Positions 19,765-44,482 of a stretch of DNA of 64,000 nt are shown here, piece by piece. Below the pieces are notes generated by a model. That model had not been told where the DNA came from. It saw only the letters and a program-made list of their open reading frames with translations, and searched no databases. The first letter of the stretch is position 1. The number at the start of each line of letters is the position of its first letter. The stretch is from sequence record DRR723986_4720. The stretch is one strand, 5' to 3'. Made by a program: the position numbers and the translations under genes.

Positions 19765-20163
19765 CTAGCTGCGGCCACCCTTGATCAGGCTGCGGAACCA
19801 GTCGGCCAGGGTTTCATGCTTGTAGTCAGTGAACTCGCCGGCATCCATGAACATACCGTGCTCGTTACACATTTCATACCAGATGTGGGGCTGGTCCGGA
19901 TCCGAGGTCTTTTCCATGTCCTTGCCGCAGCGTGGGCAGGCGATATCTTCGACGGCGTCCCATTTCTTGCCCTCGTCGGCGCTGCCCAGGTCCAGTGCGT
20001 CGCCCATCCACTGCTTTTTCAGCTGTTCGGCCTCGCCGGTGTCGAACCAGAGGCCCTGACAGCTGGTGCAACGGTCAATGGTGACCTGTCCGTAGGTGAT
20101 TTCTTCCATGCCATGACCACACTTGGGGCATTGGATGCTGTGTACGTCGGGATTGTGTTCCAT
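19765..20163 (-). CDS. Tandem zf-TFIIB-type zinc-ribbon protein
   Basis: CPKC...DRCTSCQGLWFDTGE and CPRC...CNEHGMFMDAGE repeats. Confidence 0.85.
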   Translation of the reverse strand: MEHNPDVHSIQCPKCGHGMEEITYGQVTIDRCTSCQGLWFDTGEAEQLKKQWMGDALDLGSADEGKKWDAVEDIACPRCGKDMEKTSDPDQPHIWYEMCNEHGMFMDAGEFTDYKHETLADWFRSLIKGGRS

Positions 20164-20389
20164 CTGCGTGATTCCGTAGCTGGTGGTTATTTGCATCTAT
20201 TATAGACACTGTTACGTGCCGGGCCAGAGGAGTCTAGCCCAGCGAAGGGGGAAAGTCCTCCCCGCTGGGGCAAAATATGGCGCCAGCGCTGGCTTTCAGC
20301 TTAGTTTAATATTGCGGGAGCAGACTGCTGGGCCTTTCGGGGGGAAACTCCGCCCGCAGGCGGTACAACCCTGATACGAGGAATCTGAC

Positions 20390-21016
20390 ATGCGAACAAT
20401 GACCCGCTGGATATCCGGCCTGATCACAGCACTTGCCTGTGGCGTCATGGCACCCGCCATGGCTGATGGTGAGGCGAGTTTCGCGACCTGCGCAGCCTGC
20501 CATGGTGCTGATGCCAGCGGTAATGTGGCGCTCAATGCCCCGCGGCTTAACCACCTTGCGCCAGTGTACATTGCCGCCCAGCTGTCCAAGTTCAAAACCG
20601 GCGTTCGCGGTGGTGAAGGTGGCAGTGTCGCCGGCAAGCAAATGGCACCAATGGCCTACACCCTCGCGGATGACGAGGCGATCACCGCAGTAGCAGACTA
20701 CATTGCCGGCCTCGACAGCGCGCCGTCACCAGTCACCATCGAGGGTGACGTGGCACTGGGTGCGGATTACTACAACCAGTTCTGCGGTGCCTGTCATGGT
20801 GCTGCGGCCGAGGGTAATCTGGCCCTCAGCTCGCCCCGATTGGCAGGGTCTGATGACTGGTATCTGGTGGAACAGCTGCGTGCGTTCCGCGCCGGCGAGC
20901 GCGGCGCCCACCCCGACGATCGTACCGGCAAGCAGATGCGGGCCATGTCCATGGTGCTGCCTGATGACCAGGCGGTTGCCGATGTGGTGGCATTTGTCCG
21001 GAGCCTGGCCAGGTAG
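20390..21016 (+). CDS. Diheme cytochrome c4/c553-like
   Basis: Signal peptide; CAACH and CGACH, each followed by PRL...QL..F and KQM distal Met; GAGG RBS. Confidence 0.92.
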   Translation: MRTMTRWISGLITALACGVMAPAMADGEASFATCAACHGADASGNVALNAPRLNHLAPVYIAAQLSKFKTGVRGGEGGSVAGKQMAPMAYTLADDEAITAVADYIAGLDSAPSPVTIEGDVALGADYYNQFCGACHGAAAEGNLALSSPRLAGSDDWYLVEQLRAFRAGERGAHPDDRTGKQMRAMSMVLPDDQAVADVVAFVRSLAR

Positions 21017-21025
21017 CCTCCTGCG

Positions 21026-22219
21026 ATGCAGCGCCTTCTTGCTACTTTCTGGATCGTGTTCCTGGCTCCGCTGTTACAGGCGGCGCCGGACGCTTTTGTG
21101 CTGGCCGAAGACTGCCCGCCGGGCTTTGAGCTCAGCAGCGGCCAGTGTGAACTGCGCAGCCTCTACCAGATGTATGCCTCGCTGGAAGATGCGGGGGTGG
21201 GTGGCCTGAAGACGGGCTTGCCGGCCCATAGGGACGGCTTTTCACCGCAGCAGACAGACCTCGGTCGTTACCTGTTCTTCGACCCGGTCCTGTCTGGCAA
21301 CGGCAAGGTGTCCTGCGCCACCTGTCACAACCCGAACCAGGGCTTCTCTGACGGCATGGGTCGCAGCGTCGGGGTAACCGGTGAGCGGGTCAAGCGCTCC
21401 GCGCCCACCCTGTGGAATGTGGCTTTCCTGCAGAGCTTTTTCTGGGATGCGCGGTCCGACAGCCTGGAAGCGCAGATGCAGGGTCCGCTGTACGATCCGC
21501 TGGAGATGGGCAATACACCGCAGCAGTTGCTGCAGTCGTTGAACGCTATTCCCGCGTATCGCGCGCTGTTTGCCCAGGCCTTCCCCGCCGAGTTCGGTGC
21601 GCCGGATGCGCAGATCCAGTTGCACCAGATTTATGCCGCGATCACGGCGTTCCAGGTGTCCCTGGTTTCCCTCAACAGCCGGTATGACCAGTATGCCCAT
21701 GGCTATGCCGACGCCCTCACTGAAAACGAGAAAGAGGGCCTCAATATTTTCCGTTCCTTCGTCGCTCGCTGCGCCGAATGTCACACCCCGCCGCTGTTCA
21801 CCAACCAGCAGGTGGCTGTCATCGGCACGCCGGAGCCCGAGGGCCTGCCTTTCGATCCGGGCGCGGCCACGCCCTTGAATGAGCCCAGCCAGCGCGGCGG
21901 TTTCAAAGTGCCCAGCCTGCGCAACATCGAACTCACCGCGCCTTACATGCACTCCGGACGCTTCGAGACCCTTTACGAGGCGGCCGAGTTCTATACCATG
22001 GGACGCGGCCACGCGGTCCCCGAGGGTGAGGAATTGATGATTCACTGGCATATCTGGGAGCCCAATTTGACGGACACCGAGATCCATCGCCTGGTGGATT
22101 TTCTGAAGACACTGACTGATGAAAGCTTTAAACCACAGACACCGGCCAGGTTGCCCTCCGGGCTATCGCTGGTAAACAATAATCTCGCCAGTCTGAGCGA
22201 GTCCCACAAGGGGGAGTAG
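21026..22219 (+). CDS. Diheme cytochrome c peroxidase superfamily protein, MauG-type (Tyr at distal-ligand position)
   Basis: LGRYLFFDPVLS, CATCH, FFWDAR, CAECH, FKVPSLRNIELTAPYMHSGRFETLYEAAEFY. Confidence 0.9.
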   Translation: MQRLLATFWIVFLAPLLQAAPDAFVLAEDCPPGFELSSGQCELRSLYQMYASLEDAGVGGLKTGLPAHRDGFSPQQTDLGRYLFFDPVLSGNGKVSCATCHNPNQGFSDGMGRSVGVTGERVKRSAPTLWNVAFLQSFFWDARSDSLEAQMQGPLYDPLEMGNTPQQLLQSLNAIPAYRALFAQAFPAEFGAPDAQIQLHQIYAAITAFQVSLVSLNSRYDQYAHGYADALTENEKEGLNIFRSFVARCAECHTPPLFTNQQVAVIGTPEPEGLPFDPGAATPLNEPSQRGGFKVPSLRNIELTAPYMHSGRFETLYEAAEFYTMGRGHAVPEGEELMIHWHIWEPNLTDTEIHRLVDFLKTLTDESFKPQTPARLPSGLSLVNNNLASLSESHKGE

Positions 22220-22223
22220 CAGC

Positions 22224-23756
22224 ATGAATAAGTTAATCGGCATTATTGGCGCCGTGGTATTGGTGGGGGCCGGTTTTTACCTCGGCCAGGCCAACCAGCC
22301 GGAACCGACGGTAATCAAGGTTCCCGAGGCGCAGAAATCAGCGTTCACTTCCGAAGGTGCTGAGGAAGCCGCCGCCGCAACTGCCGCGGCCGGCGCTGCC
22401 ACCGCCGTGGTGCGCAGCCTGCAGACGCCGACCTCTGGCGAGGTCATCATCGTCAACGATGGTGAGTCCATCCAGGACGCAGTAGTGGCGGCTTCTCCCG
22501 GCGCGGTGATCAAGATCATGCCGGGCACCTACCGCGAAACGGTCTACGTGGATAAAGACAACATCACCCTGTCCGGGGTGATCGAGCAGGGTAACTACCC
22601 GGTGATGGACGGTGAGGGCGTGCGCAATGACGCGGTGCTTTACTCCGGTAACGGATTTACCGTCGAGAACCTGTACATCACCAAGTACAAAGGCAATGCC
22701 ATCATGGGGCAGGCGGGTAATAACTACATTATCCGTAATAACATCATTGTCGATACCGGCGTGTACGGCATTTTTCCCCAGCTCGGCAAGAACGGCATCG
22801 TCTCCCACAACGTGATATCGGGCATTGAAGATGCGGCAATCTACGTGGGCATGTCCGATAACGTTGATGTGGTGTTCAACGAGGTGTTCGACAGTGTTGC
22901 CGGCATCGAGATCGAGAACAGCCGCCACGCGCTTGTCGAAGGCAATATGGTCTACAACAACACCGGCGGTATCCTGGCCTTTATTACTCCCGGCTTACCC
23001 ATCAAGACCTGCGGTGATGTGCTGATTCGCAATAACTTCGTGGTCAACAACAACCACGAAAACTTCGCAATACCGGGATCACTGGTTTCCAATATCCCAG
23101 AAGGCACCGGCATCCTGGTCATGGCCTGTGACGATGTCGTGGTCGAAGGCAATATCATCACCGGCAATGACTCGGTCGGTATAACCCTGACCGACTTCTC
23201 CCTAGCCTCTAGCACGGCCAAGGATATTGAGGCTGACGGCAATCCGAACCGCCCCCGGATCCTGAACAACATCATGCGCAATAACGGCAACAATCCGGCA
23301 CCGATGGTGCGTGCGGCCCTGGCAGCAATGATGACGACGACTGGCCCGGATATTGCCGACACGGTGGGCATGGATGATGGCTGTATCCTTAATCCAGAGC
23401 GCTATCGCACCATCGGTCTGGGCAAGTATGGCGACTGCGAGTTTGATACCACCATGAACGTGGCCAGCTATACCTTGCCTGAGCCGGTGCCGCCGCGGAC
23501 CAAGGAGCACATGCAGACCGGCAGGCTGGTGTACTACGGTGTGTGTGCCGGTTGTCACGCCTATAATTCGCGCATGATCGGTCCGCCGACCCAGATCATC
23601 CAGGCGCTGTACATGGACAACCCCCAGGGCATCGCCGATTATGCGGCCAACCCGGTCAAGAAACGCGACGATTACCCCGAGATGCCGCCCCAGGGGCACC
23701 TCGACGAGGCCTCGCGTCTTGCCGCTGCGGAGTTCATGCTTAAAATCAAGAAGTAA
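22224..23756 (+). CDS. Membrane-anchored parallel beta-helix protein with C-terminal cytochrome c domain
   Basis: N-terminal TM, Ala linker, SIQDAV..PG, DAAIYVGMS/GIEIENS beta-helix (TIGR03805-like), C-terminal CAGCH...EMPPQ. Confidence 0.88.
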   Translation: MNKLIGIIGAVVLVGAGFYLGQANQPEPTVIKVPEAQKSAFTSEGAEEAAAATAAAGAATAVVRSLQTPTSGEVIIVNDGESIQDAVVAASPGAVIKIMPGTYRETVYVDKDNITLSGVIEQGNYPVMDGEGVRNDAVLYSGNGFTVENLYITKYKGNAIMGQAGNNYIIRNNIIVDTGVYGIFPQLGKNGIVSHNVISGIEDAAIYVGMSDNVDVVFNEVFDSVAGIEIENSRHALVEGNMVYNNTGGILAFITPGLPIKTCGDVLIRNNFVVNNNHENFAIPGSLVSNIPEGTGILVMACDDVVVEGNIITGNDSVGITLTDFSLASSTAKDIEADGNPNRPRILNNIMRNNGNNPAPMVRAALAAMMTTTGPDIADTVGMDDGCILNPERYRTIGLGKYGDCEFDTTMNVASYTLPEPVPPRTKEHMQTGRLVYYGVCAGCHAYNSRMIGPPTQIIQALYMDNPQGIADYAANPVKKRDDYPEMPPQGHLDEASRLAAAEFMLKIKK

Positions 23757-23774: not shown

Positions 23775-23799
23775 AAAGCCACCTGCGGGTGGCTTTTTT
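23775..23799 (+). terminator. Rho-independent terminator
   Basis: AAAGCCACC-TGCG-GGTGGCTTT followed by further T residues, after the cytochrome operon. Confidence 0.88.
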
Positions 23800-24203
23800 C
23801 ATTCCCGCTCCCGGGTTTTTTCCAGCACGCGATCGTAGCGCGACTTCAGCTGTGCATGCTCGCGCACATCGGCGAGCCGGGACAGCCGGTCCTGGGGGTC
23901 GGCCGGGGCAGGGGGTTCAGCTGCCTCAGCCCGGCTGCTTGCCGGCCCCGGCTTCTTGTCCGCCTGGGGCCTGAACTGCCATAGGACAAAGAGCAGGGCA
24001 CCGTAGACGATCAGGATTTTTGCGACCAGTGCGTAAATTTCGGTGCCCGGGTGTTCACGCGCCAGGTAATCGGCGATGTCCCGGTACAGTAGCGAACTCA
24101 CCGCGGCGAACAGCAGTACGCCGACCACGCGGAACAGCTTGTCTTTGTACTTGCCGAGGAAGAACAGGATGGACGAGTATTTGACGACCCGGAACAGGGA
24201 CAT
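23799..24203 (-). CDS. Hypothetical two-TM membrane protein
   Basis: Two hydrophobic segments; tightly coupled to the upstream gene. Confidence 0.7.
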   Translation of the reverse strand: MSLFRVVKYSSILFFLGKYKDKLFRVVGVLLFAAVSSLLYRDIADYLAREHPGTEIYALVAKILIVYGALLFVLWQFRPQADKKPGPASSRAEAAEPPAPADPQDRLSRLADVREHAQLKSRYDRVLEKTRERE

Positions 24204-24205
24204 GG

Positions 24206-24457
24206 TCAGATACCGATGTTAATGCCCAACAACAGGGCGACAATGCCAAAGCCTTTCCAGCCGATGCCGGACCAGATTTCTTTTTCCTTCTCGGCCACCA
24301 GGTACTCGAGGTCTTCGTCAGAATAATCCGTTTCCTGGCGACCGGCATGGATAATATCCTGCCGCACCCGCGCAATTGCAGCTTCCCGCAGTTTCTGGCG
24401 AACGAGACGAGGTGCGCGGATGCGCGACTTGCTGTCCTGGTTCATGCTTTCCGTCAT
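24206..24457 (-). CDS. Hypothetical small protein with C-terminal membrane anchor
   Basis: AAIARVRQDIIHAGRQETDYSDEDLEYLVAEKEKEI plus hydrophobic tail. Confidence 0.7.
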   Translation of the reverse strand: MTESMNQDSKSRIRAPRLVRQKLREAAIARVRQDIIHAGRQETDYSDEDLEYLVAEKEKEIWSGIGWKGFGIVALLLGINIGI

Positions 24458-37338: not shown

Positions 37339-37386
37339 GAAAATTCCGTAATGCTGTTGCAATGCTTTTGGCATTAAACTAGATTG

Positions 37387-37418
37387 TATACATATGTGCA
37401 AGTTTGCTCATTTGTGAG
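37387..37418. promoter_or_regulatory. Two tandem imperfect TGCACA-N2-TGTGCA-like palindromes, putative TetR operators
   Basis: TATACA-TA-TGTGCA (37387-37400) and TGCTCA-TT-TGTGAG (37405-37418) in the divergent intergenic region. Confidence 0.45.
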
Positions 37419-37473
37419 CGCGCTCTGCGCCGTCGACAGTAAACTTTATTCACCGGGTGAGAGTGGTATCGAC

Positions 37474-38688
37474 ATGTCTGAACGCCTGATCGTGGTATCA
37501 ACCGACTGCCACGCCGGATTACCTATTGCCGATTACAAGCCGTACGTGGAATCCAAATATCACGAGATGATGGACATGGCCGTGCCCATCCAGGTCGAGA
37601 TGATGGACAAGGCCGAGTCGAGTTTCCTGATCAAGGAGATCAACGACGCCTGGCGAGCGCCGATCAAGCAGGCGCTGACCGGTGCCTGGGACTACCGGGA
37701 GCGGGTCAAGATGCTTGCCGGCGATGGCATCGCCGCGGAGATTATCTTCCCGGACGGGATCACCGAGCAGAACACGCCGCCTTTCGGCGCCGGCCTGGGC
37801 CTCAGCCCCCGGGATATGGTGCCGGAGCTGCAGTGGGCCGGGGCCATGGCCCACAACCGCTGGCTGGCGGAATTGTGCGCCAACGACCCGGCGCGGCATA
37901 TCGGGGTGGCCTCCATACCCTTGCTCTGGGATGTGCAGCAGGCTGTGGACGCGGTGCGCTGGTGCGTGGACAACGGCCTGCGCGCGGTGATGATCCCCAC
38001 CCTGTGGCTCGACCATGATCCCTACCACCACGTGAAGTACGACCCGTTCTGGGAAGTGTGCGAGGACCTTGGGGTCATCATTCACTTCCACTCGGGCCCT
38101 GCGCCCCATCCTGAGTATTTTGGCCGCGAATGGCCGGTAGAGGACAAGTCCGACCAGCTCCCGGGCGCCATGGGTATCTATGTTTCCGAAGTCATGTGGT
38201 GGCTGTACCGGCCGCTCACATTCATGATCTGGGGTGGTGTATTCGAGCGCTTCCCCAGGCTCAAGGCGATGATGGTCGAGGGTGGCACCATGTTCATGCT
38301 GCCGCCGTGGCTGCGCCTGCTGGATCACAATTACACCGATGTGCAGTTCTCCGCCAAGCTTGGCGACTTCCGTTCTCACCTGACCATGGCGCCCAGCGAG
38401 TACTTCCGCCGCAATTGCGGTATCGGTGCATCCTGTGTGCCGCGCGCCGATCTCGACCTGCGCGCCATGCTCGGTACCGAGCTGATCATGTGGGGCAGCG
38501 ACTTCCCCCATCCGGAGGGGACGTGGCCGAACACCGCGGACTATTTCCGCACGACTTTCTCCGATTTCCCGGAGGAGGACGGGCGCAAGATTCTCGGCGA
38601 GAACGCCGTGCGTTTCTACGGCCTGGATCGCGACCGCCTGCAGCAGGTGGCCGATGATATCGGGCCGGATACATCCCTGTTTCACTAA
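37474..38688 (+). CDS. Amidohydrolase_2 family metal-dependent hydrolase
   Basis: STDCH, HNRWLAE, HFHSG, GVFERFP, WGSDFPHPEGTWP. Confidence 0.92.
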   Translation: MSERLIVVSTDCHAGLPIADYKPYVESKYHEMMDMAVPIQVEMMDKAESSFLIKEINDAWRAPIKQALTGAWDYRERVKMLAGDGIAAEIIFPDGITEQNTPPFGAGLGLSPRDMVPELQWAGAMAHNRWLAELCANDPARHIGVASIPLLWDVQQAVDAVRWCVDNGLRAVMIPTLWLDHDPYHHVKYDPFWEVCEDLGVIIHFHSGPAPHPEYFGREWPVEDKSDQLPGAMGIYVSEVMWWLYRPLTFMIWGGVFERFPRLKAMMVEGGTMFMLPPWLRLLDHNYTDVQFSAKLGDFRSHLTMAPSEYFRRNCGIGASCVPRADLDLRAMLGTELIMWGSDFPHPEGTWPNTADYFRTTFSDFPEEDGRKILGENAVRFYGLDRDRLQQVADDIGPDTSLFH

Positions 38689-38720
38689 CTGGAGGCACTA
38701 CCCGGCAAGGGTGGTGGTAA

Positions 38721-39698
38721 ATGATTATGAGCATTGTTGAAGCCTGCGAATCCAGGACCAACGCCACGCCCGATTTTCCGATGGGCTGGTACAGTGTGGG
38801 CCGTACCCACGAACTGCAGATCGGTGAGGTGACCAATGTCAGCGCGTTTGACCGCGAGCTGGCCCTGTACCGCACGCGCTCCGGCGTTGCGGTGCTGCAG
38901 GACGCTTTCTGCCCGCACCTGGGTGCACACCTCGGAGTCGAGGGTCGCGTAGTCGGCGAGTCCATCCGCTGCCCATTCCACGGCTGGCGTTTCGGCACCG
39001 ACGGCGTGTGCGAGGAAATACCCTACTGCGACGAGATCCCGGAGCGGGCGCGGATCAGGACCTGGCATACGGAAGAAAAGCACGGCCAGGTCTGGGTCTG
39101 GTTCCACCCGGAGAACATTGCTCCCAAGTGGCCGCTGCCCGATATTCCCCAGTTTGGTGACGAGAACTGGACCCAGCCGCGATTCGCCGAGTTCGACGTG
39201 CCGGCCCATGTTCAGGATATTGCCGAGAACTCCTGTGACCCGGTCCACTTCCAGTATGTGCACAAGCAGCCGGATGTACCGCCGTCCGAGGTTACCGTGG
39301 AAGACAATGGGCGCATTCTGCATCTGCGTTCCGATGCCAGGAATGCGCCGATCCCCAACCAGCTCCACGCCACGGTGTTCAGCCCCGGCCATGCGCTGGT
39401 GCATACGGATTACGGTCCCAATGCCGAAATGATCGTCTATAACAGCGCCCAGCCTATCGACCGGCACAATACCAAGATGCGCTGGTCGCTGATCGTACGC
39501 AAGGAGATCGAGGATCTCGCCGGCGACGATGTGATGCAGGGCATTATCAACGGCCTGTCGGATGACTATCCGATCTGGGCCAACAAGGTGCACAAGCGCA
39601 GGCCGCTGTTCTGCAAGGCGGATAAGACCCTGGTGCTGTTCCGCAAGTGGGTAAGGCAGTTCTACCTGACCGAGGAAGACAAGCGGGAGATTGCCTGA
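38721..39698 (+). CDS. Rieske non-heme iron oxygenase, KshA/Neverland-like
   Basis: CPHLGAHL...CPFHGW; ENSCDPVHFQYVH; DDYPIWANK. Confidence 0.9.
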   Translation: MIMSIVEACESRTNATPDFPMGWYSVGRTHELQIGEVTNVSAFDRELALYRTRSGVAVLQDAFCPHLGAHLGVEGRVVGESIRCPFHGWRFGTDGVCEEIPYCDEIPERARIRTWHTEEKHGQVWVWFHPENIAPKWPLPDIPQFGDENWTQPRFAEFDVPAHVQDIAENSCDPVHFQYVHKQPDVPPSEVTVEDNGRILHLRSDARNAPIPNQLHATVFSPGHALVHTDYGPNAEMIVYNSAQPIDRHNTKMRWSLIVRKEIEDLAGDDVMQGIINGLSDDYPIWANKVHKRRPLFCKADKTLVLFRKWVRQFYLTEEDKREIA

Positions 39699-39700
39699 TA

Positions 39701-40582
39701 ATGCAGGATTTCACCGATAAGGTCGCCGTCATCACCGGCGGCGCCAGCGGCGTCGGCCGGTCCCTCGCTTTCGCCCTCGGGCGGCGTGGCGCCAGAATTG
39801 TGGTCGGCGACGTCGACCAGGCTGCGATGTCACAGATCGCCGAGGAGCTTGCGGCCGAGGGCATTGATGCCGCCGTTGCCCAGTGTGATGTCACCTCACC
39901 GGACAGCCTCAAGGCACTGGCCGACAGCGCCCAACAGACCTTCGGCTCCATCGATCTGGTATTTGCCAATGCGGGTATCGGCGCCGGTGAGTCCGGGGCT
40001 ATGTGGGACTATTCGGACAAGGACTGGCAATGGTGTCTCAACGTTAACCTGTGGGGCGTGATCAATACGATCAAGGCTTTCATGCCGCGGCTCGTCGCGC
40101 GCAATGAGCCGGCGCACTTCGTGGTCACCGGCTCGGGCAATGGCGCGTTCATGGTCCTGCCGGATGCGCCGATCTATACCACCAGCAAAGCCGCGGTGCA
40201 TGCCATTACCGAGAACCTGCACTACCAGGTCATGGCGGCGGGCAGTCCGGTAAAGGTGAGCGCCCTGTTCCCGGGACCGCATGTGGTGGAAACCGGGCTA
40301 TTCAATTCCGGGCGGGTACGCCCCGAGGACCTGAAAAAGGATGTCGAGGGCAATGAGTCCGGCATCAACTCGGTCGAGGATATGAAAAAGATGGCGGCAG
40401 AGTTCGGCATCGAAATGCAGAGCACTCACCCGGACGAGGTGGCGGCTATGGCAATCGAAGGCCTGGAGCAGGATGCTTTCTGGTTGCTGGCCACCACCCC
40501 GGAAACCGATGACAAGATACGCCGGCGCGCGCAGATGATTCTTGAGCGCAGCACGCCGGTCCCGGAAATGGTTGGCGCCTGA
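39701..40582 (+). CDS. SDR family oxidoreductase
   Basis: TGGASGVG, FANAG, VNLWGV, YTTSK. Confidence 0.92.
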   Translation: MQDFTDKVAVITGGASGVGRSLAFALGRRGARIVVGDVDQAAMSQIAEELAAEGIDAAVAQCDVTSPDSLKALADSAQQTFGSIDLVFANAGIGAGESGAMWDYSDKDWQWCLNVNLWGVINTIKAFMPRLVARNEPAHFVVTGSGNGAFMVLPDAPIYTTSKAAVHAITENLHYQVMAAGSPVKVSALFPGPHVVETGLFNSGRVRPEDLKKDVEGNESGINSVEDMKKMAAEFGIEMQSTHPDEVAAMAIEGLEQDAFWLLATTPETDDKIRRRAQMILERSTPVPEMVGA

Positions 40583-40635
40583 CGGCGCCACTTCCCCAAG
40601 CAAGTACCATTCAAGTAACAATAAGGACGCAAAGC

Positions 40636-41415
40636 ATGTCGAATGAAGCAGCCGCCCCCCAGGGCAACCCCGGCGATATCGTCAACTGGCCGATGCTGAA
40701 GATCGTTTATCGCACTGACCCCGACAAGATCGCCGCACTGTTACCACCCGGTATCGAGCCGGGCGCCAACCCGCATGTCACCCTGACCATTTACAACTAC
40801 CCGGTACCCGACGAGCCCGAGTACGGCATCGTTACCACGGTAGACGCCAATTACAACGGCATCGAAGGCGAGTACACCCTCGGCTACGGCATCGACCAGG
40901 AATCAGCGATTTTCATCAGCCAGGAAACCAACGGCCAGCCCAAGTACCCCTGTACCACCGAGTATTACCGTCTTGGGCCATCCGTCTCGGCGCGCTGCAT
41001 TCACCAGGGCTACACCTTCGTGGAATTCAAAGGTGTGTCCAAGGGGCCGGTAGACCCGCTTCCAGAATTTGACCAGAACGAGTGGTGGATCAAGGTGTCT
41101 CGCGCGGTGAGCGTTGGCGGCCCTGCCACTGGCTATGACTTCCCGCCGCACGTGGTGCATGTGCGCAGCCGTTACGGCACCGCATGGCGCGAGGAAGTTG
41201 AGGGTGAGCTCGTGCTGCGTGACAGCCCCTGGGATCCGCTGACTACCCTGCTGCCGATGCGCGAGCAGGTGTCGGCACACCTGTGGTGGCCGATCTTCCT
41301 CGACCGTGAGATCAAGCTGGCGGGCAAGCTCGACCCGGAGGGCTTCCTGCCCTTCGTCGATACGATCTCAGGCTCGCGTTACCCCGGCACCAACGGCGGT
41401 CCCAAGCGAGGCTGA
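40636..41415 (+). CDS. Acetoacetate decarboxylase superfamily protein
   Basis: YRTDPDKIAALLPPG, QETNGQPK (Schiff-base Lys position), SPWDPL..LP. Confidence 0.82.
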   Translation: MSNEAAAPQGNPGDIVNWPMLKIVYRTDPDKIAALLPPGIEPGANPHVTLTIYNYPVPDEPEYGIVTTVDANYNGIEGEYTLGYGIDQESAIFISQETNGQPKYPCTTEYYRLGPSVSARCIHQGYTFVEFKGVSKGPVDPLPEFDQNEWWIKVSRAVSVGGPATGYDFPPHVVHVRSRYGTAWREEVEGELVLRDSPWDPLTTLLPMREQVSAHLWWPIFLDREIKLAGKLDPEGFLPFVDTISGSRYPGTNGGPKRG

Positions 41416-41433: not shown

Positions 41434-41769
41434 TCAGTCTGCCAGTAATTTCGGGTGGGATTTGGTGAGCAGGTATTCGGCGGCGGCGTCGACGTCGTAC
41501 TCACTCATGCCCGGCTCACCGCCTTTCGGGGGCATTGCGATCCAGCCCTGGTTGGCGTGCTCGAACAGCACGCCTTCCCATAGTTCCGAGCGCTCTTCCC
41601 AGTCGGCGGGGCTGCCGAAGGCCGGTGCGCCCATGATGCCTGTGTTGTGGCACTTGGCGCAGACCGCCTCGTAGGCCTTACGGCCTTCCTCCATACGCTC
41701 GGGGGTGGCAGTGGCGACAGCGCTGGTGAACGACAGGGCAAGTGCGGAAACAGTCAGCAAACGGTTCAT
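41434..41769 (-). CDS. Cytochrome c5
   Basis: Signal peptide, CAKCH, GIMGAP..G...W, AMPPKGG. Confidence 0.92.
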   Translation of the reverse strand: MNRLLTVSALALSFTSAVATATPERMEEGRKAYEAVCAKCHNTGIMGAPAFGSPADWEERSELWEGVLFEHANQGWIAMPPKGGEPGMSEYDVDAAAEYLLTKSHPKLLAD

Positions 41770-41857
41770 CGAAACACTCCGTGAGTAGGTCTTTGGCTTG
41801 TAAATGTAGCCCACAATGCGGGAGATATCTTCTTCTGCGGCCTGTTCCTGCCAAAGT

Positions 41858-41866
41858 TGCTACAAT
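41858..41866 (+). promoter_or_regulatory. Extended -10 promoter (TGnTACAAT) for the GMC operon
   Basis: TGCTACAAT about 35 bp upstream of the first ORF. Confidence 0.45.
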
Positions 41867-41899
41867 GCGGCGCTTCCAGTTCTCATGGAATGGCGAATA

Positions 41900-42160
41900 A
41901 TGATAAGAGCTCTGGTCTGGGGCCTGCTGACGGGTAGCTACCTGTTCTTTGGCCTGGAACCCACGGGATGGCTGTTTTACGAGGCCAGCCACGCCACCGG
42001 TATCGAATCGCTGTACCACGGGTACAGCGTGTTTCGTGCGGGGGGCTACTTCTTCGGCCTGTGGCCTTACCAGGCACTGGCCTGCGCCGTCGCCGGATTG
42101 GTTGTGGCGGCCCTGGTTTACCTGCTCGGACAACGGAGGCGACATCGTGAACAGGCGTGA
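41900..42160 (+). CDS. Small aromatic-rich two-TM membrane protein
   Basis: MIRALVWGLLTGSYLFFG...; overlaps the start of the next gene. Confidence 0.6.
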   Translation: MIRALVWGLLTGSYLFFGLEPTGWLFYEASHATGIESLYHGYSVFRAGGYFFGLWPYQALACAVAGLVVAALVYLLGQRRRHREQA

Positions 42161-42782
42161 TTTCCTGCAGTGTGCCGCGCTGCTCACCGCCGGGACCTCG
42201 GTGGTTCCCGCGGCCTGGAGTTTGAACCAGGAACAATCCCGGTTTCTGGCCGCCAGGGCATCGTACATCGACAGCCCACTGCCCGGTTTGTTCAGCGAGC
42301 CGCAGCGGGCGGCCGTCAGTGCGGCGGCGGAGTTGATCATTCCCCGCACAGACACGCCGGGTGCGCTCGATGCGGGCGTCCCCCGGTTTATCGAACTCAT
42401 GGTTGCGGACTGGTTCACCGAGTCGGAGCGGACCCTGTTTGTCGCAGGATTGGACGATCTCCTGGGTCAGGCAGATGGCGACTTCGCCGGGCTGGCGCAG
42501 GAGCAGCAGCTGGTGCTGTTGCAAGCCCTGGAGGAAGAGGCCGCCGATTCCCCCTGGTACGAGCTTGGCAACGCGCTGCGAATCTGGGATGACAGCGCCC
42601 CGTTCATCTGCCAGCTGAAAGAGCTGACTGTGCTCGGTTTCATGCTGTCTGAGCTTGGCAGCGCGCAGTTCCTGCGGCCCAATCCGATGGGGACCTTCGA
42701 CGGCAGCCTGCCGCTCGCCGCCGATGATCGTGCCTACGAGAAGCACACCATGATCCGCATGATGGCCAAGGAGACCAGCTGA
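42147..42782 (+). CDS. Gluconate 2-dehydrogenase subunit 3 family (Tat hitch-hiker subunit)
   Basis: VNRRDFLQ Tat motif, IIPRTDTPGALDAGVPRFI, LKELTVLGF; GGAGG RBS. Confidence 0.92.
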   Translation: MNRRDFLQCAALLTAGTSVVPAAWSLNQEQSRFLAARASYIDSPLPGLFSEPQRAAVSAAAELIIPRTDTPGALDAGVPRFIELMVADWFTESERTLFVAGLDDLLGQADGDFAGLAQEQQLVLLQALEEEAADSPWYELGNALRIWDDSAPFICQLKELTVLGFMLSELGSAQFLRPNPMGTFDGSLPLAADDRAYEKHTMIRMMAKETS

Positions 42783-44482
42783 TGACAGTGTCCGGTTTTG
42801 ACGCGATTGTCGTAGGGTCCGGTGTTTCCGGTGGCTGGGCGGCCAAGGAGTTGACCGAGCAGGGCCTGAAAGTGCTGGTGCTGGAGCGCGGCAAGAATAT
42901 CCGTCACCAGCGGGATTACCTTGGTGAGCATGCCAGCAGCTGGCAGCAGCCGTTCTATGGGATGCCGGATCGCGAGCGCGCGAACCGCGATTACGCGATC
43001 CAGCAGAAGTCTTATGCGTTTGGCGAGCCGACCATTCAGTACTGGAACAATGACCGGCTGAATCCCTACGTAAAGAACGAGGACAAGCCGTTCAACTGGA
43101 TGCGCGCAGACGCGGTTGGCGGACGTTCACTGCTCTGGGGCCGTCAGGTCTATCGCTGGGGCCAGCACGATTTTGACGCTAACAGCGCAGACGGCCACGG
43201 CGTGGCATGGCCCGTGTCCTACCGGGATATTGCACCCTGGTACAGCCACGTGGAGAAATTTATCGGGGTCAGCGGCCAGGCTGAAGGCTGGGATCACCTG
43301 CCGGACAGTGAGTTCCTGCCGCCGATGGAATACTACGCGTTGGAAAAAACCATTGTTGCCCGGATGCGCGACAAGGTACCCGAGATTCCCATCACCATGG
43401 GCCGCGTAGCGATTCTCACCCGCGATCACAATGGCCGTTCCGCCTGTCATTACTGCGGCCCCTGTCATCGTGGCTGTTCCACCGGCAGCTATTTCAGTTC
43501 GCAGAGCTCGACCCTGCCGGCGGCGGAAGCTACCGGCAACCTGACCCTGCTGCCTGACCATGTGGTTGAGCGGCTGGTGCACGATGACAGTGGTCGCCGG
43601 ATAACCGAGGTCCGGGCGATCGATACCCGAACCGGCGAGCGGCACAGCTTTTCGGCGAAGCTGGTGTTCCTCTGCGCCTCAACCCTGGCCAGCACCCAGA
43701 TCATGCTGAACTCCGCCAGCGAACGTCATCCGGCGGGGCTGGGCAATGGCAGCGGGGTGCTCGGCAGCTACCTGATGGACCATCTCGCGGTGTCCAACAC
43801 CGGCACCTTTGTCGACGATACCGACAAATACTACAAGGGTGAGCGCCCCAACGGGCTTTACGTCCCGCGGTTCCGGAACCTGGGCGGACAGGACGAGGAC
43901 GCCGATTTCCTCCGCGGCTATGGCTACCAGGCCATTCCCATTCGCCCCGACTGGGAGCTGAGTTTCAATCGGCGCGGTTTTGGTGCCGATTACAAGGCAG
44001 CATTGGGCAAGCCGGCGCCGATCTGGATCTGGGCCCTGCGCGCCTTTATCGAATGCCTGCCCACCGCGTCCAACCGCATATCCCTGCACCCCACGCGCAA
44101 GGACCGCTTCGGTATTCCGCTGCTGGTCACCGAGTTTGAGTGGAGTGACAACGAGCGCAATGCGGCGCTGGATGCCGGGGTTCAGGCTTCGCGTATCCTG
44201 CGTGCCGCCGGCGCGGTGATGATCGATGCCAATGACAACAGCAAGCTCGATGTGGGGGGCGATGCCATCCACGAAATGGGTACCGCGCGAATGGGTAGGG
44301 ATCCGGCCAGCTCGGTGCTCAACGCCTACAACCAGGCCCACGAAGTGGATAACCTGTTCGTCACCGATGGCTCTTTCATGACCTCGTCTTCCTGTGTGAA
44401 TCCCTCACTGACCTATATGGCGTTCACTGCCCGGGCCTGCAATTACGCGGTCACCCAGTTGCGGGAAGGCAAATTTGGCTGA
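42782..44482 (+). CDS. GMC flavoprotein dehydrogenase, large subunit (glycoside 3-dehydrogenase-like)
   Basis: GSGVSGGWAAKELTE, CHYCGPCHRGC Fe-S motif, HEMGTARMG, CVNPSLTYMA. Confidence 0.93.
   Translation: MTVSGFDAIVVGSGVSGGWAAKELTEQGLKVLVLERGKNIRHQRDYLGEHASSWQQPFYGMPDRERANRDYAIQQKSYAFGEPTIQYWNNDRLNPYVKNEDKPFNWMRADAVGGRSLLWGRQVYRWGQHDFDANSADGHGVAWPVSYRDIAPWYSHVEKFIGVSGQAEGWDHLPDSEFLPPMEYYALEKTIVARMRDKVPEIPITMGRVAILTRDHNGRSACHYCGPCHRGCSTGSYFSSQSSTLPAAEATGNLTLLPDHVVERLVHDDSGRRITEVRAIDTRTGERHSFSAKLVFLCASTLASTQIMLNSASERHPAGLGNGSGVLGSYLMDHLAVSNTGTFVDDTDKYYKGERPNGLYVPRFRNLGGQDEDADFLRGYGYQAIPIRPDWELSFNRRGFGADYKAALGKPAPIWIWALRAFIECLPTASNRISLHPTRKDRFGIPLLVTEFEWSDNERNAALDAGVQASRILRAAGAVMIDANDNSKLDVGGDAIHEMGTARMGRDPASSVLNAYNQAHEVDNLFVTDGSFMTSSSCVNPSLTYMAFTARACNYAVTQLREGKFG

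Follow-up and report, generated by a model that had tools for sequence, protein, structure and literature searches.

In this work, we describe a gene pair in the 64,000-nucleotide stretch of DNA from sequence record DRR723986_4720 (hereafter the window, always at its full length), in which a dihaem enzyme of the MauG type (P0002) is encoded directly before a TIGR03805-family beta-helix protein that carries a class I cytochrome c domain of its own (P0003). In the window, the two genes stand in an operon with a preceding cytochrome c4-like gene (P0001). The conserved core is the dihaem/beta-helix pair and not the three genes: the pair is kept across Gammaproteobacteria and Bacteroidota, is duplicated as a unit and is fused into single polypeptides elsewhere, whereas the c4 gene is an accessory, lineage-specific add-on. 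The pair is best filed as a variant of the arrangement in which a MauG-type enzyme comes with its own partner protein. We tentatively favour a model in which P0003 would be a periplasmic redox enzyme matured by P0002 into a dehydrogenase.

The three genes are co-oriented, with gaps of 9 bp between P0001 and P0002 and 4 bp between P0002 and P0003, and their products carry 2+2+1 CxxCH haem motifs. Open reading frame (ORF) coordinates and translations bear out these features, which had been noticed in an earlier inspection of the letters alone (the sequence-only reading). Export of the three proteins was judged by eye; P0001 and P0002 both start with a signal peptide of the classic type.

A conserved core of two genes

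A scan for P0003 homologues, with one genome per species, yielded 80 loci from Gammaproteobacteria and Bacteroidota, nearly all of them encoding the protein at full length including its haem domain. The closest relatives of the window by this protein are Halieaceae (82–84% identity). Directly upstream and on the same strand, 78 of the 80 loci carry a P0002 homologue (59–78% identity), and the remaining two (L027 and L067) start at a contig end. A P0001 homologue, by contrast, is present in all 32 loci titled Gammaproteobacteria and in 2 of the 48 others, both metagenome-assembled genomes (MAGs) of Flavobacteriales, for a total of 34 of 80; among the 46 non-gammaproteobacterial loci without it, 6 are too short upstream for a judgement. 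Most Bacteroidota loci have no c4 gene. The sequence-only reading had taken all three genes for a self-contained module and named conserved synteny as a check, and this view survives for the pair, which is a module in its own right (78 of 80 loci, fused in 7 clusters), but not for the c4 gene.

On two MAG contigs, the tblastn ranges of the dihaem homologue (L026:230-1336 and L043:4776-5963) contain two stop codons each. Gene disruption, errors in the sequence or a match that extends past the real start are possible causes.

The pair also duplicates as a pair. One Halioglobus genome encodes a second, diverged adjacent pair (49% and 40% identity), whose P0003 paralogue scores 134.3 bits on TIGR03805, slightly under the cut-off of 141.5. 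This second pair lies at L087:6991-9682 on the minus strand, in the same genome as L003, with neighbours at L087:3427-6957; after it come genes for a 333-residue protein without a family match and for a polyhydroxybutyrate-depolymerase-like esterase, and a gene of the RPE65/carotenoid-oxygenase family is divergent from it.

Among 1.84 billion cluster representatives, the relatives of P0003 form a large family of 179 clusters at 50% identity (E values up to 1e-30). We scanned 32 of the 150 relatives listed, picked for odd length or for a full-length match, and seven of these turned out to be single polypeptides of 755–1001 residues, in which an N-terminal CCP_MauG part precedes a C-terminal beta-helix. 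Their halves are homologous to P0002 (36–44% identity) and P0003 (33–41% identity), and each of the seven has two CxxCH motifs only, with no third carrier domain. Fused forms recur on many contigs, and one cluster holds 23 members, some named from Blastocatellia MAGs. This genomic evidence speaks for a physical partnership of the MauG-type enzyme with the beta-helix protein, in which the two presumably bind one another.

Hallmarks of a MauG-type enzyme

P0002 matches Pfam CCP_MauG (2.2e-54) and has its haem motifs, CATCH and CAECH, at C97–H101 and C249–H253. According to PMC11892367, MauG-type enzymes differ from canonical ones in the ligation of the second haem, which is His/Tyr in the former and His/Met in the latter. 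In HMMER alignments to solved structures, Tyr323 (codon 21992–21994) falls on Tyr294 of MauG and on the corresponding Tyr of MbnH, and it is invariant in 76 of 76 P0002 sequences and in 7 of 7 fusion proteins. Met325, by contrast, which aligns to the Met ligand of the Nitrosomonas peroxidase, is less than 80% conserved across the same 76 sequences. P0002 therefore has the CCP_MauG domain but not the conserved Met ligand of the electron-transfer haem that defines a canonical cytochrome c peroxidase, and its residues mark it as a MauG-type enzyme with predicted His/Tyr ligation, as the sequence-only reading had called it.

Trp140, which lies between the haems, is invariant in the orthologue alignment, as are the distal residues Gln150 and Glu160, so the activation of peroxide is probably kept. 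Two further elements mark the subfamily, an N-terminal CPPGF...C element and an HWHIW stretch at 340–344, after Tyr323, and neither occurs in the fusion proteins. The AlphaFold model of P0002 is poor (predicted local distance difference test (pLDDT) score of 60.6) and was left out of the fold searches.

These residues bear on another conceivable role of the operon, plain detoxification of periplasmic peroxide, in which a cytochrome c peroxidase would draw its electrons from the c4 and the P0003 haem, and the role of the beta-helix would be unrelated or just structural. c4-type cytochromes are usual electron donors, the CCP_MauG domain of P0002 matches solved peroxidases with E values of about 1e-43, and some database records name these proteins 'cytochrome-c peroxidase'. 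We nevertheless regard this role as very unlikely, as the MauG Tyr never varies and the position of the Met ligand lacks conservation, and as it leaves unexplained both the pairing and fusion with the beta-helix and the importer, regulator and aldehyde dehydrogenase genes found nearby in other genomes. MauG-type enzymes are also poor peroxidases (PMC11892367).

Two other candidates were rejected. One is the Pseudomonas oleate-diol synthase type of dihaem enzyme, whose related NCBIfam model NF040606 scores only 15 bits, and the other a MauG-like gene beside PhoX in Flavobacterium (PMC8115612), the context of which is different.

A tryptophan-free beta-helix with a swappable carrier domain

P0003 scores 166.9 bits on TIGR03805 (beta_helix_1; cut-off 141.5) over residues 83–375, and in Pfam it matches Beta_helix/NosD (NosD 5.7e-13) with a weak Cytochrome_CBB3 match at the C-terminus. 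Its predicted structure (pLDDT 82, predicted template modelling score 0.81) comprises four parts, namely an N-terminal hydrophobic helix, a linker at residues 24–63 that is disordered in the model and not conserved among orthologues, the right-handed beta-helix and a helical cytochrome c domain with the single haem motif, CAGCH (Table 1). By eye, the N-terminus looks like a membrane anchor followed by a variable linker in most orthologues, whereas in locus L030 it resembles a signal peptide that can be cleaved.

A plastocyanin/azurin-type cupredoxin stands in the place of the haem domain in 2 of the 32 scanned relatives, and because of this substitution we read the C-terminal domain as a one-electron carrier. 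The cupredoxin variant P0144 gave weak matches in a metagenome scan (14 loci, 24–48% identity over short stretches), and in 401 Pseudomonadota genomes its beta-helix part alone was matched, in 16 genomes at E values up to 1e-40.

An alignment of 27 diverse relatives, covering orthologues, the paralogue and the haem-c, cupredoxin, dihaem-fusion and C-terminal two-CxxCH-extension forms, reveals a polar set that is kept family-wide: Tyr207 in 27 of 27, Tyr181, Asp203 and Glu231 in 26 each, Glu229 in 25, and Lys261 as Lys in 24 and Arg in 2. The methionines are not kept across these relatives, nor is the near-conserved His278, which the paralogue and several others do not have. P0003 has no Trp at all in its 510 residues, and the beta-helix has no conserved Cys.

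The fold itself is shared with generic beta-helix enzymes throughout. The P0003 model superimposes on 8ja4, an alginate epimerase/lyase, with a Z score of 29.6 (root-mean-square deviation 2.0 over 276 residues), on AlgE4 with 26.8, on RbmB with 26.0 and on the solved NosD (7osf_A) with 24.7 (261 residues, 16% identity); polygalacturonases are also among the top matches, and a Protein Atlas search found generic beta-helix/NosD clusters only. Such matches, together with the SusC, SusD and PKD genes adjacent in Flavobacteriaceae, would suit a carbohydrate-active enzyme that acts on an imported glycan as a lyase, epimerase or hydrolase, with the haems as a redox sensor or accessory. We hold this to be highly improbable. 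Z scores of 21–30 are spread across many unrelated beta-helix enzymes, no CAZy-type family model in Pfam or NCBIfam matched P0001–P0003, and haem or copper partners accompany every branch of the family, an indication of redox chemistry. Against mannuronan C5-epimerases and PL6-type enzymes, the fold match (Z 26.8–29.6) is strong but likewise generic. As for the catalytic Tyr/Asp/His motif of their groove, Tyr181-Gly-x-x-Pro185 of P0003 may resemble the active-site motif of the mannuronan epimerase, with Phe184 and Gln186 presumably at the positions of its Asp and His.

The c4-type cytochrome and the layout of the locus

P0001 consists of two class I Cytochrom_C domains (Pfam, 4.1e-24) with the haem motifs CAACH and CGACH at C34 and C132. 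Each domain has a CxxCH and a distal Met, the mark of the c4 type, and across 35 sequences the conservation of these residues (C34/C37/H38/M85 and C132/C135/H136/M183) is 97% or higher. The best NCBIfam matches of P0001 are partial and below their cut-offs.

Behind the operon, the hairpin with a T-run agrees with the closing terminator that had been proposed from the letters (Table 1). Terminator-like sites show no excess in the region (4 found, 4.1 expected from shuffled sequence), and it is the position of the hairpin, not site statistics, that makes it credible.

The genes flanking the operon in the window are unrelated and of housekeeping or catabolic kinds. The divergent zinc-ribbon gene is kept as a neighbour in 22 loci, all Halieaceae-like, and is the sole feature that Halieaceae loci share beyond the operon; it is a conserved neighbour within Halieaceae only, and a candidate for membership of the unit at most. 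From the other side, two small ORFs without a family match (134 and 83 residues; 23799–24457, minus strand) converge on the operon and are conserved in 9 Halieaceae loci.

Farther away in the window, 41434–44482 encodes a monohaem cytochrome c (126 residues, minus strand), a 287-residue ORF without a family match and a divergent GMC-family flavoprotein (566 residues), an arrangement reminiscent of three-subunit flavocytochrome dehydrogenases. What looks like a small catabolic cluster occupies 37384–41415, behind a TetR gene, with an amidohydrolase, a KshA-like Rieske oxygenase, a short-chain dehydrogenase and an acetoacetate-decarboxylase-family protein.

Table 1 Features of the operon and its surroundings in the window
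Feature	Position	Strand	Details or basis
P0001, cytochrome c4-like dihaem gene	20390-21016	+	208 aa; homologue in 34/80 loci
P0002, MauG-type dihaem enzyme gene	21026-22219	+	397 aa
P0003, TIGR03805 beta-helix + class I cytochrome c gene	22224-23756	+	510 aa
P0003 N-terminal hydrophobic helix (signal anchor or signal peptide), residues 1-23 (helix 3-23 in model)	22224-22292	+	model and by eye
P0003 right-handed beta-helix, residues 74-408 (end approximate)	22443-23447	+	predicted structure, alignment
P0003 helical cytochrome c domain, residues 430-507 (C441-x-x-C444-H445, Met487)	23511-23744	+	Pfam, model, alignment
Terminator-like hairpin closing the operon, 9 pairs (5 G-C) then T-run	23775-23796	+	pattern scan
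TFIIB-type zinc-ribbon gene, divergent from the operon	19765-20196	-	143 aa; neighbour scan

Gene neighbourhoods in other lineages

The supposition that the cluster is self-contained fails in Flavobacteriaceae, where genes for a regulator, for an importer of the outer membrane and for an aldehyde dehydrogenase are added to it. Across Bacteroidota, a LytTR-domain regulator lies upstream of the pair in 30 loci, and SusC, SusD and PKD genes lie downstream in 14–22. The aldehyde dehydrogenase gene directly follows the beta-helix gene in 14 loci (as a sequence cluster, with Pfam checked on one member) and directly follows the PKD gene in 7 of the 7 SusCD-type loci that were extended. The model closest to it is that of the benzaldehyde dehydrogenase MdlD, on which it scores 420 bits (cut-off 550). 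The match in the L066 genome contains one TGA.

Other Gammaproteobacteria have an AraC regulator upstream in 5 loci and sometimes a TonB-dependent receptor. Matches of this AraC regulator to FeaR and QhpR were given no weight, as they cover the generic DNA-binding domain only (E values of about 1e-6).

Large Flavobacteriaceae proteins with DUF7133, HEAT and cytochrome c parts occur near the pair in 8 loci (for example, L090:3977-7183 and L048:11719-13332), and similar proteins elsewhere in those genomes are the source of weak C-terminal matches to TIGR03806.

Comparison with known systems

Among the curated families compared, P0003 reaches the cut-off of TIGR03805, and none of MauG, MbnH, NosD and TIGR03806 is reached. 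A literature search, with subscription-only papers outside its coverage, found no publication describing a pair of MauG-type enzyme and beta-helix protein, and no characterised system matched, in keeping with the earlier suggestion of an uncharacterised system.

With the MauG system, the pair shares a dihaem enzyme of the CCP_MauG fold with Tyr at the Tyr294 position, the inter-haem Trp and the distal Gln and Glu, as well as a dedicated protein partner that is encoded alongside and bears a one-electron carrier (haem c or cupredoxin). The aldehyde dehydrogenase of the Flavobacteriaceae clusters is a further likeness to the methylamine system, with its pre-methylamine dehydrogenase, amicyanin, cytochrome c and tryptophan tryptophylquinone (TTQ). 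However, P0002 scores 188.1 bits on the MauG model (TIGR03791) against a cut-off of 443.85, and no mau or methylamine dehydrogenase genes are found among its neighbours. The partner differs too, being a beta-helix that is fused to the enzyme in some bacteria and on which, since it has no Trp, TTQ is impossible.

MbnH (TIGR04039) is the best-scoring curated family for P0002, at 226.3 bits against a cut-off of 362.85, and the solved MbnH 6e1c aligns over residues 72–369, including the Tyr. MbnH and MbnP likewise form a two-gene unit, often beside a TonB-dependent transporter. The partners, however, differ in fold, and the Trp-free P0003 offers no counterpart to the Trp-rich WxW motif of MbnP, which becomes a copper protein after modification by MbnH (PMC11951088). 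The copper protein depends on kynurenine. With NosD, P0003 has in common a Pfam match, a similar fold and a periplasmic location. It differs in scoring 51.8 bits on TIGR04247, against a cut-off of 300, and in having no NosF/NosY, ATP-binding cassette (ABC) or nos genes adjacent to the operon.

Taken together, these two likenesses raise the possibility of metal (copper) handling, in which the dihaem enzyme would create a metal site on the beta-helix protein, which would then take up a metal imported by a TonB-dependent receptor. For this speak the MbnH and NosD matches in sequence and structure, MbnP being made a copper protein by its enzyme, and the TonB-dependent or SusC receptors beside the pair in many loci. 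We consider it quite improbable, with both curated cut-offs missed and no conserved Cys, and with His278, the only near-conserved His, missing from the paralogue and from several relatives; without Trp no kynurenine can form. Nor are NosFY-type ABC genes present near the operon, and an aldehyde dehydrogenase is ill-suited to metal uptake.

BthA/BthB of Burkholderia resembles the pair in having a dihaem enzyme of the His/Tyr type, no mau operon and an unknown substrate (PMC6405878). The match to the solved BthA (6nx0) is weak, however (1.2e-22, residues 137–324 only), the neighbourhood differs, and P0002 keeps an inter-haem Trp, which BthA does not have.

The final comparison is with the TIGR03805/TIGR03806 pair, in which the partner of the beta-helix is a dihaem cytochrome of the SO2930 family. 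Membership of TIGR03805 and a dihaem partner are common themes, and the Tyr181/Asp203/Tyr207/Glu229/Glu231/Lys261 set is common to three relatives with a two-CxxCH extension. P0003 is distinguished by its CCP_MauG partner and its additional fused haem c domain. As had been noted from the letters, P0003 is a TIGR03805 member without a TIGR03806 partner: TIGR03806 matches none of P0001–P0003 (E values up to 0.01), and no protein exceeds its cut-off in the genomes of five relatives. In the literature searched, SO2930/SO2931 turn up in gene lists only. The three relatives mentioned (P0214, P0215 and P0219; 776–785 residues) keep this Tyr/Asp/Tyr/Glu/Glu/Lys set, have a C-terminal extension in which about 78 residues separate their two CxxCH motifs, and are probably the fused form of the TIGR03805/TIGR03806 pair.

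A possible maturase and its dehydrogenase

The reading that we tentatively favour is that of a redox enzyme of the periplasm served by a MauG-type partner of its own. It starts from what was observed, namely the anatomy and families of the proteins, their pairing and fusions, the exchangeable carrier domain and the neighbouring genes; binding, modification, direction of electron flow and substrate class are its proposed parts. The haem wiring and the binding of a substrate or metal by the beta-helix, as put forward in the sequence-only reading, are likewise putative. The model would work as follows. P0002 would react with hydrogen peroxide (H2O2), or with O2 and electrons, at its five-coordinate haem and, with its His/Tyr-ligated second haem, reach a high-valent state from which oxidising equivalents would travel over a long distance to one protein, P0003. 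The beta-helix protein is the likely recipient because MauG and MbnH each oxidise one partner protein. Most likely, a tyrosine-derived redox cofactor would be formed in the groove lined by Tyr181, Asp203, Tyr207, Glu229, Glu231 and Lys261 of the membrane-tethered P0003. Once matured, P0003 would be the dehydrogenase for an organic substrate that is imported, with an aldehyde as the probable product, and electrons would leave by its haem c (a cupredoxin in some relatives) for the cytochrome c4 and from there for a terminal oxidase.

We favour this maturase-plus-dehydrogenase model because of the high-potential carriers, the catabolic-looking importers and regulators, and the aldehyde dehydrogenase, which suggests an aldehyde product. 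Haem c, cupredoxin and c4 are all high-potential carriers and typical exits for quinoprotein dehydrogenases. A more specific version, which we think unlikely as it stands, would have the beta-helix protein be a quinohaemoprotein-like dehydrogenase whose cofactor is made by the MauG-type enzyme from the invariant tyrosines, possibly cross-linked to Lys261, and which produces an aldehyde from an imported amine or alcohol in marine bacteria.

Several observations weigh against the maturase-plus-dehydrogenase model. Without Trp, and without a conserved Cys in the beta-helix, neither TTQ nor kynurenine can form on P0003, and we know of no precedent for a tyrosine cofactor made by a MauG-type enzyme. 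The aldehyde dehydrogenase is confined to Flavobacteriaceae loci, none such being found in the window or in the loci of other Gammaproteobacteria, Cytophagales or Saprospirales, and because of this limitation its link to the pair may reflect shared ancestry. Finally, the fused forms, with two CxxCH motifs only, lack a third carrier domain, which a peroxide-driven oxidase would explain about as well, and their permanent fusion is easier to reconcile with a standing oxidant module than with a maturase that is used once.

Such a module would be a standing, peroxide-driven oxidase, in which P0002 and P0003 form a permanent complex and a substrate in the beta-helix groove is oxidised at every turnover by the high-valent dihaem, with hole transfer through the conserved tyrosines and no stable cofactor, while haem c, cupredoxin and c4 merely reset or protect the enzyme. 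The one-polypeptide fusion in 7 clusters without a third carrier domain, the strict one-to-one pairing and duplication as a pair, the retention in P0002 of Trp140 and of the peroxide-activating Gln150 and Glu160, and the resemblance of the P0003 groove to polymer-binding grooves (those of 8ja4 and AlgE4, with the Z scores given above) all argue for this possibility. We nonetheless judge it somewhat unlikely, as neither the swappable domain (haem c or cupredoxin) nor the c4, invariably present in Gammaproteobacteria, has an evident role in it, and no peroxide source is encoded near the operon.

Significance

To our knowledge, studies of MauG-type enzymes have been limited to MauG, MbnH and BthA, and two of these three have a known protein target. 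In the present case, the genomes themselves point to a target, as one fold is always encoded beside the enzyme, shares its duplication and, in other phyla, forms one polypeptide with it; the role of many orphan MauG-like enzymes is therefore directly testable with two recombinant proteins. The TIGR03805 beta-helix family, whose function is unknown, is now firmly linked to redox chemistry, and the pair occurs in abundant marine heterotrophs (Halieaceae and Flavobacteriaceae). If the beta-helix protein is indeed a dehydrogenase with a tyrosine cofactor, it would provide the first case of a tyrosine-derived redox cofactor that is installed by an enzyme on a beta-helix scaffold, and it would do so in a widespread marine pathway.

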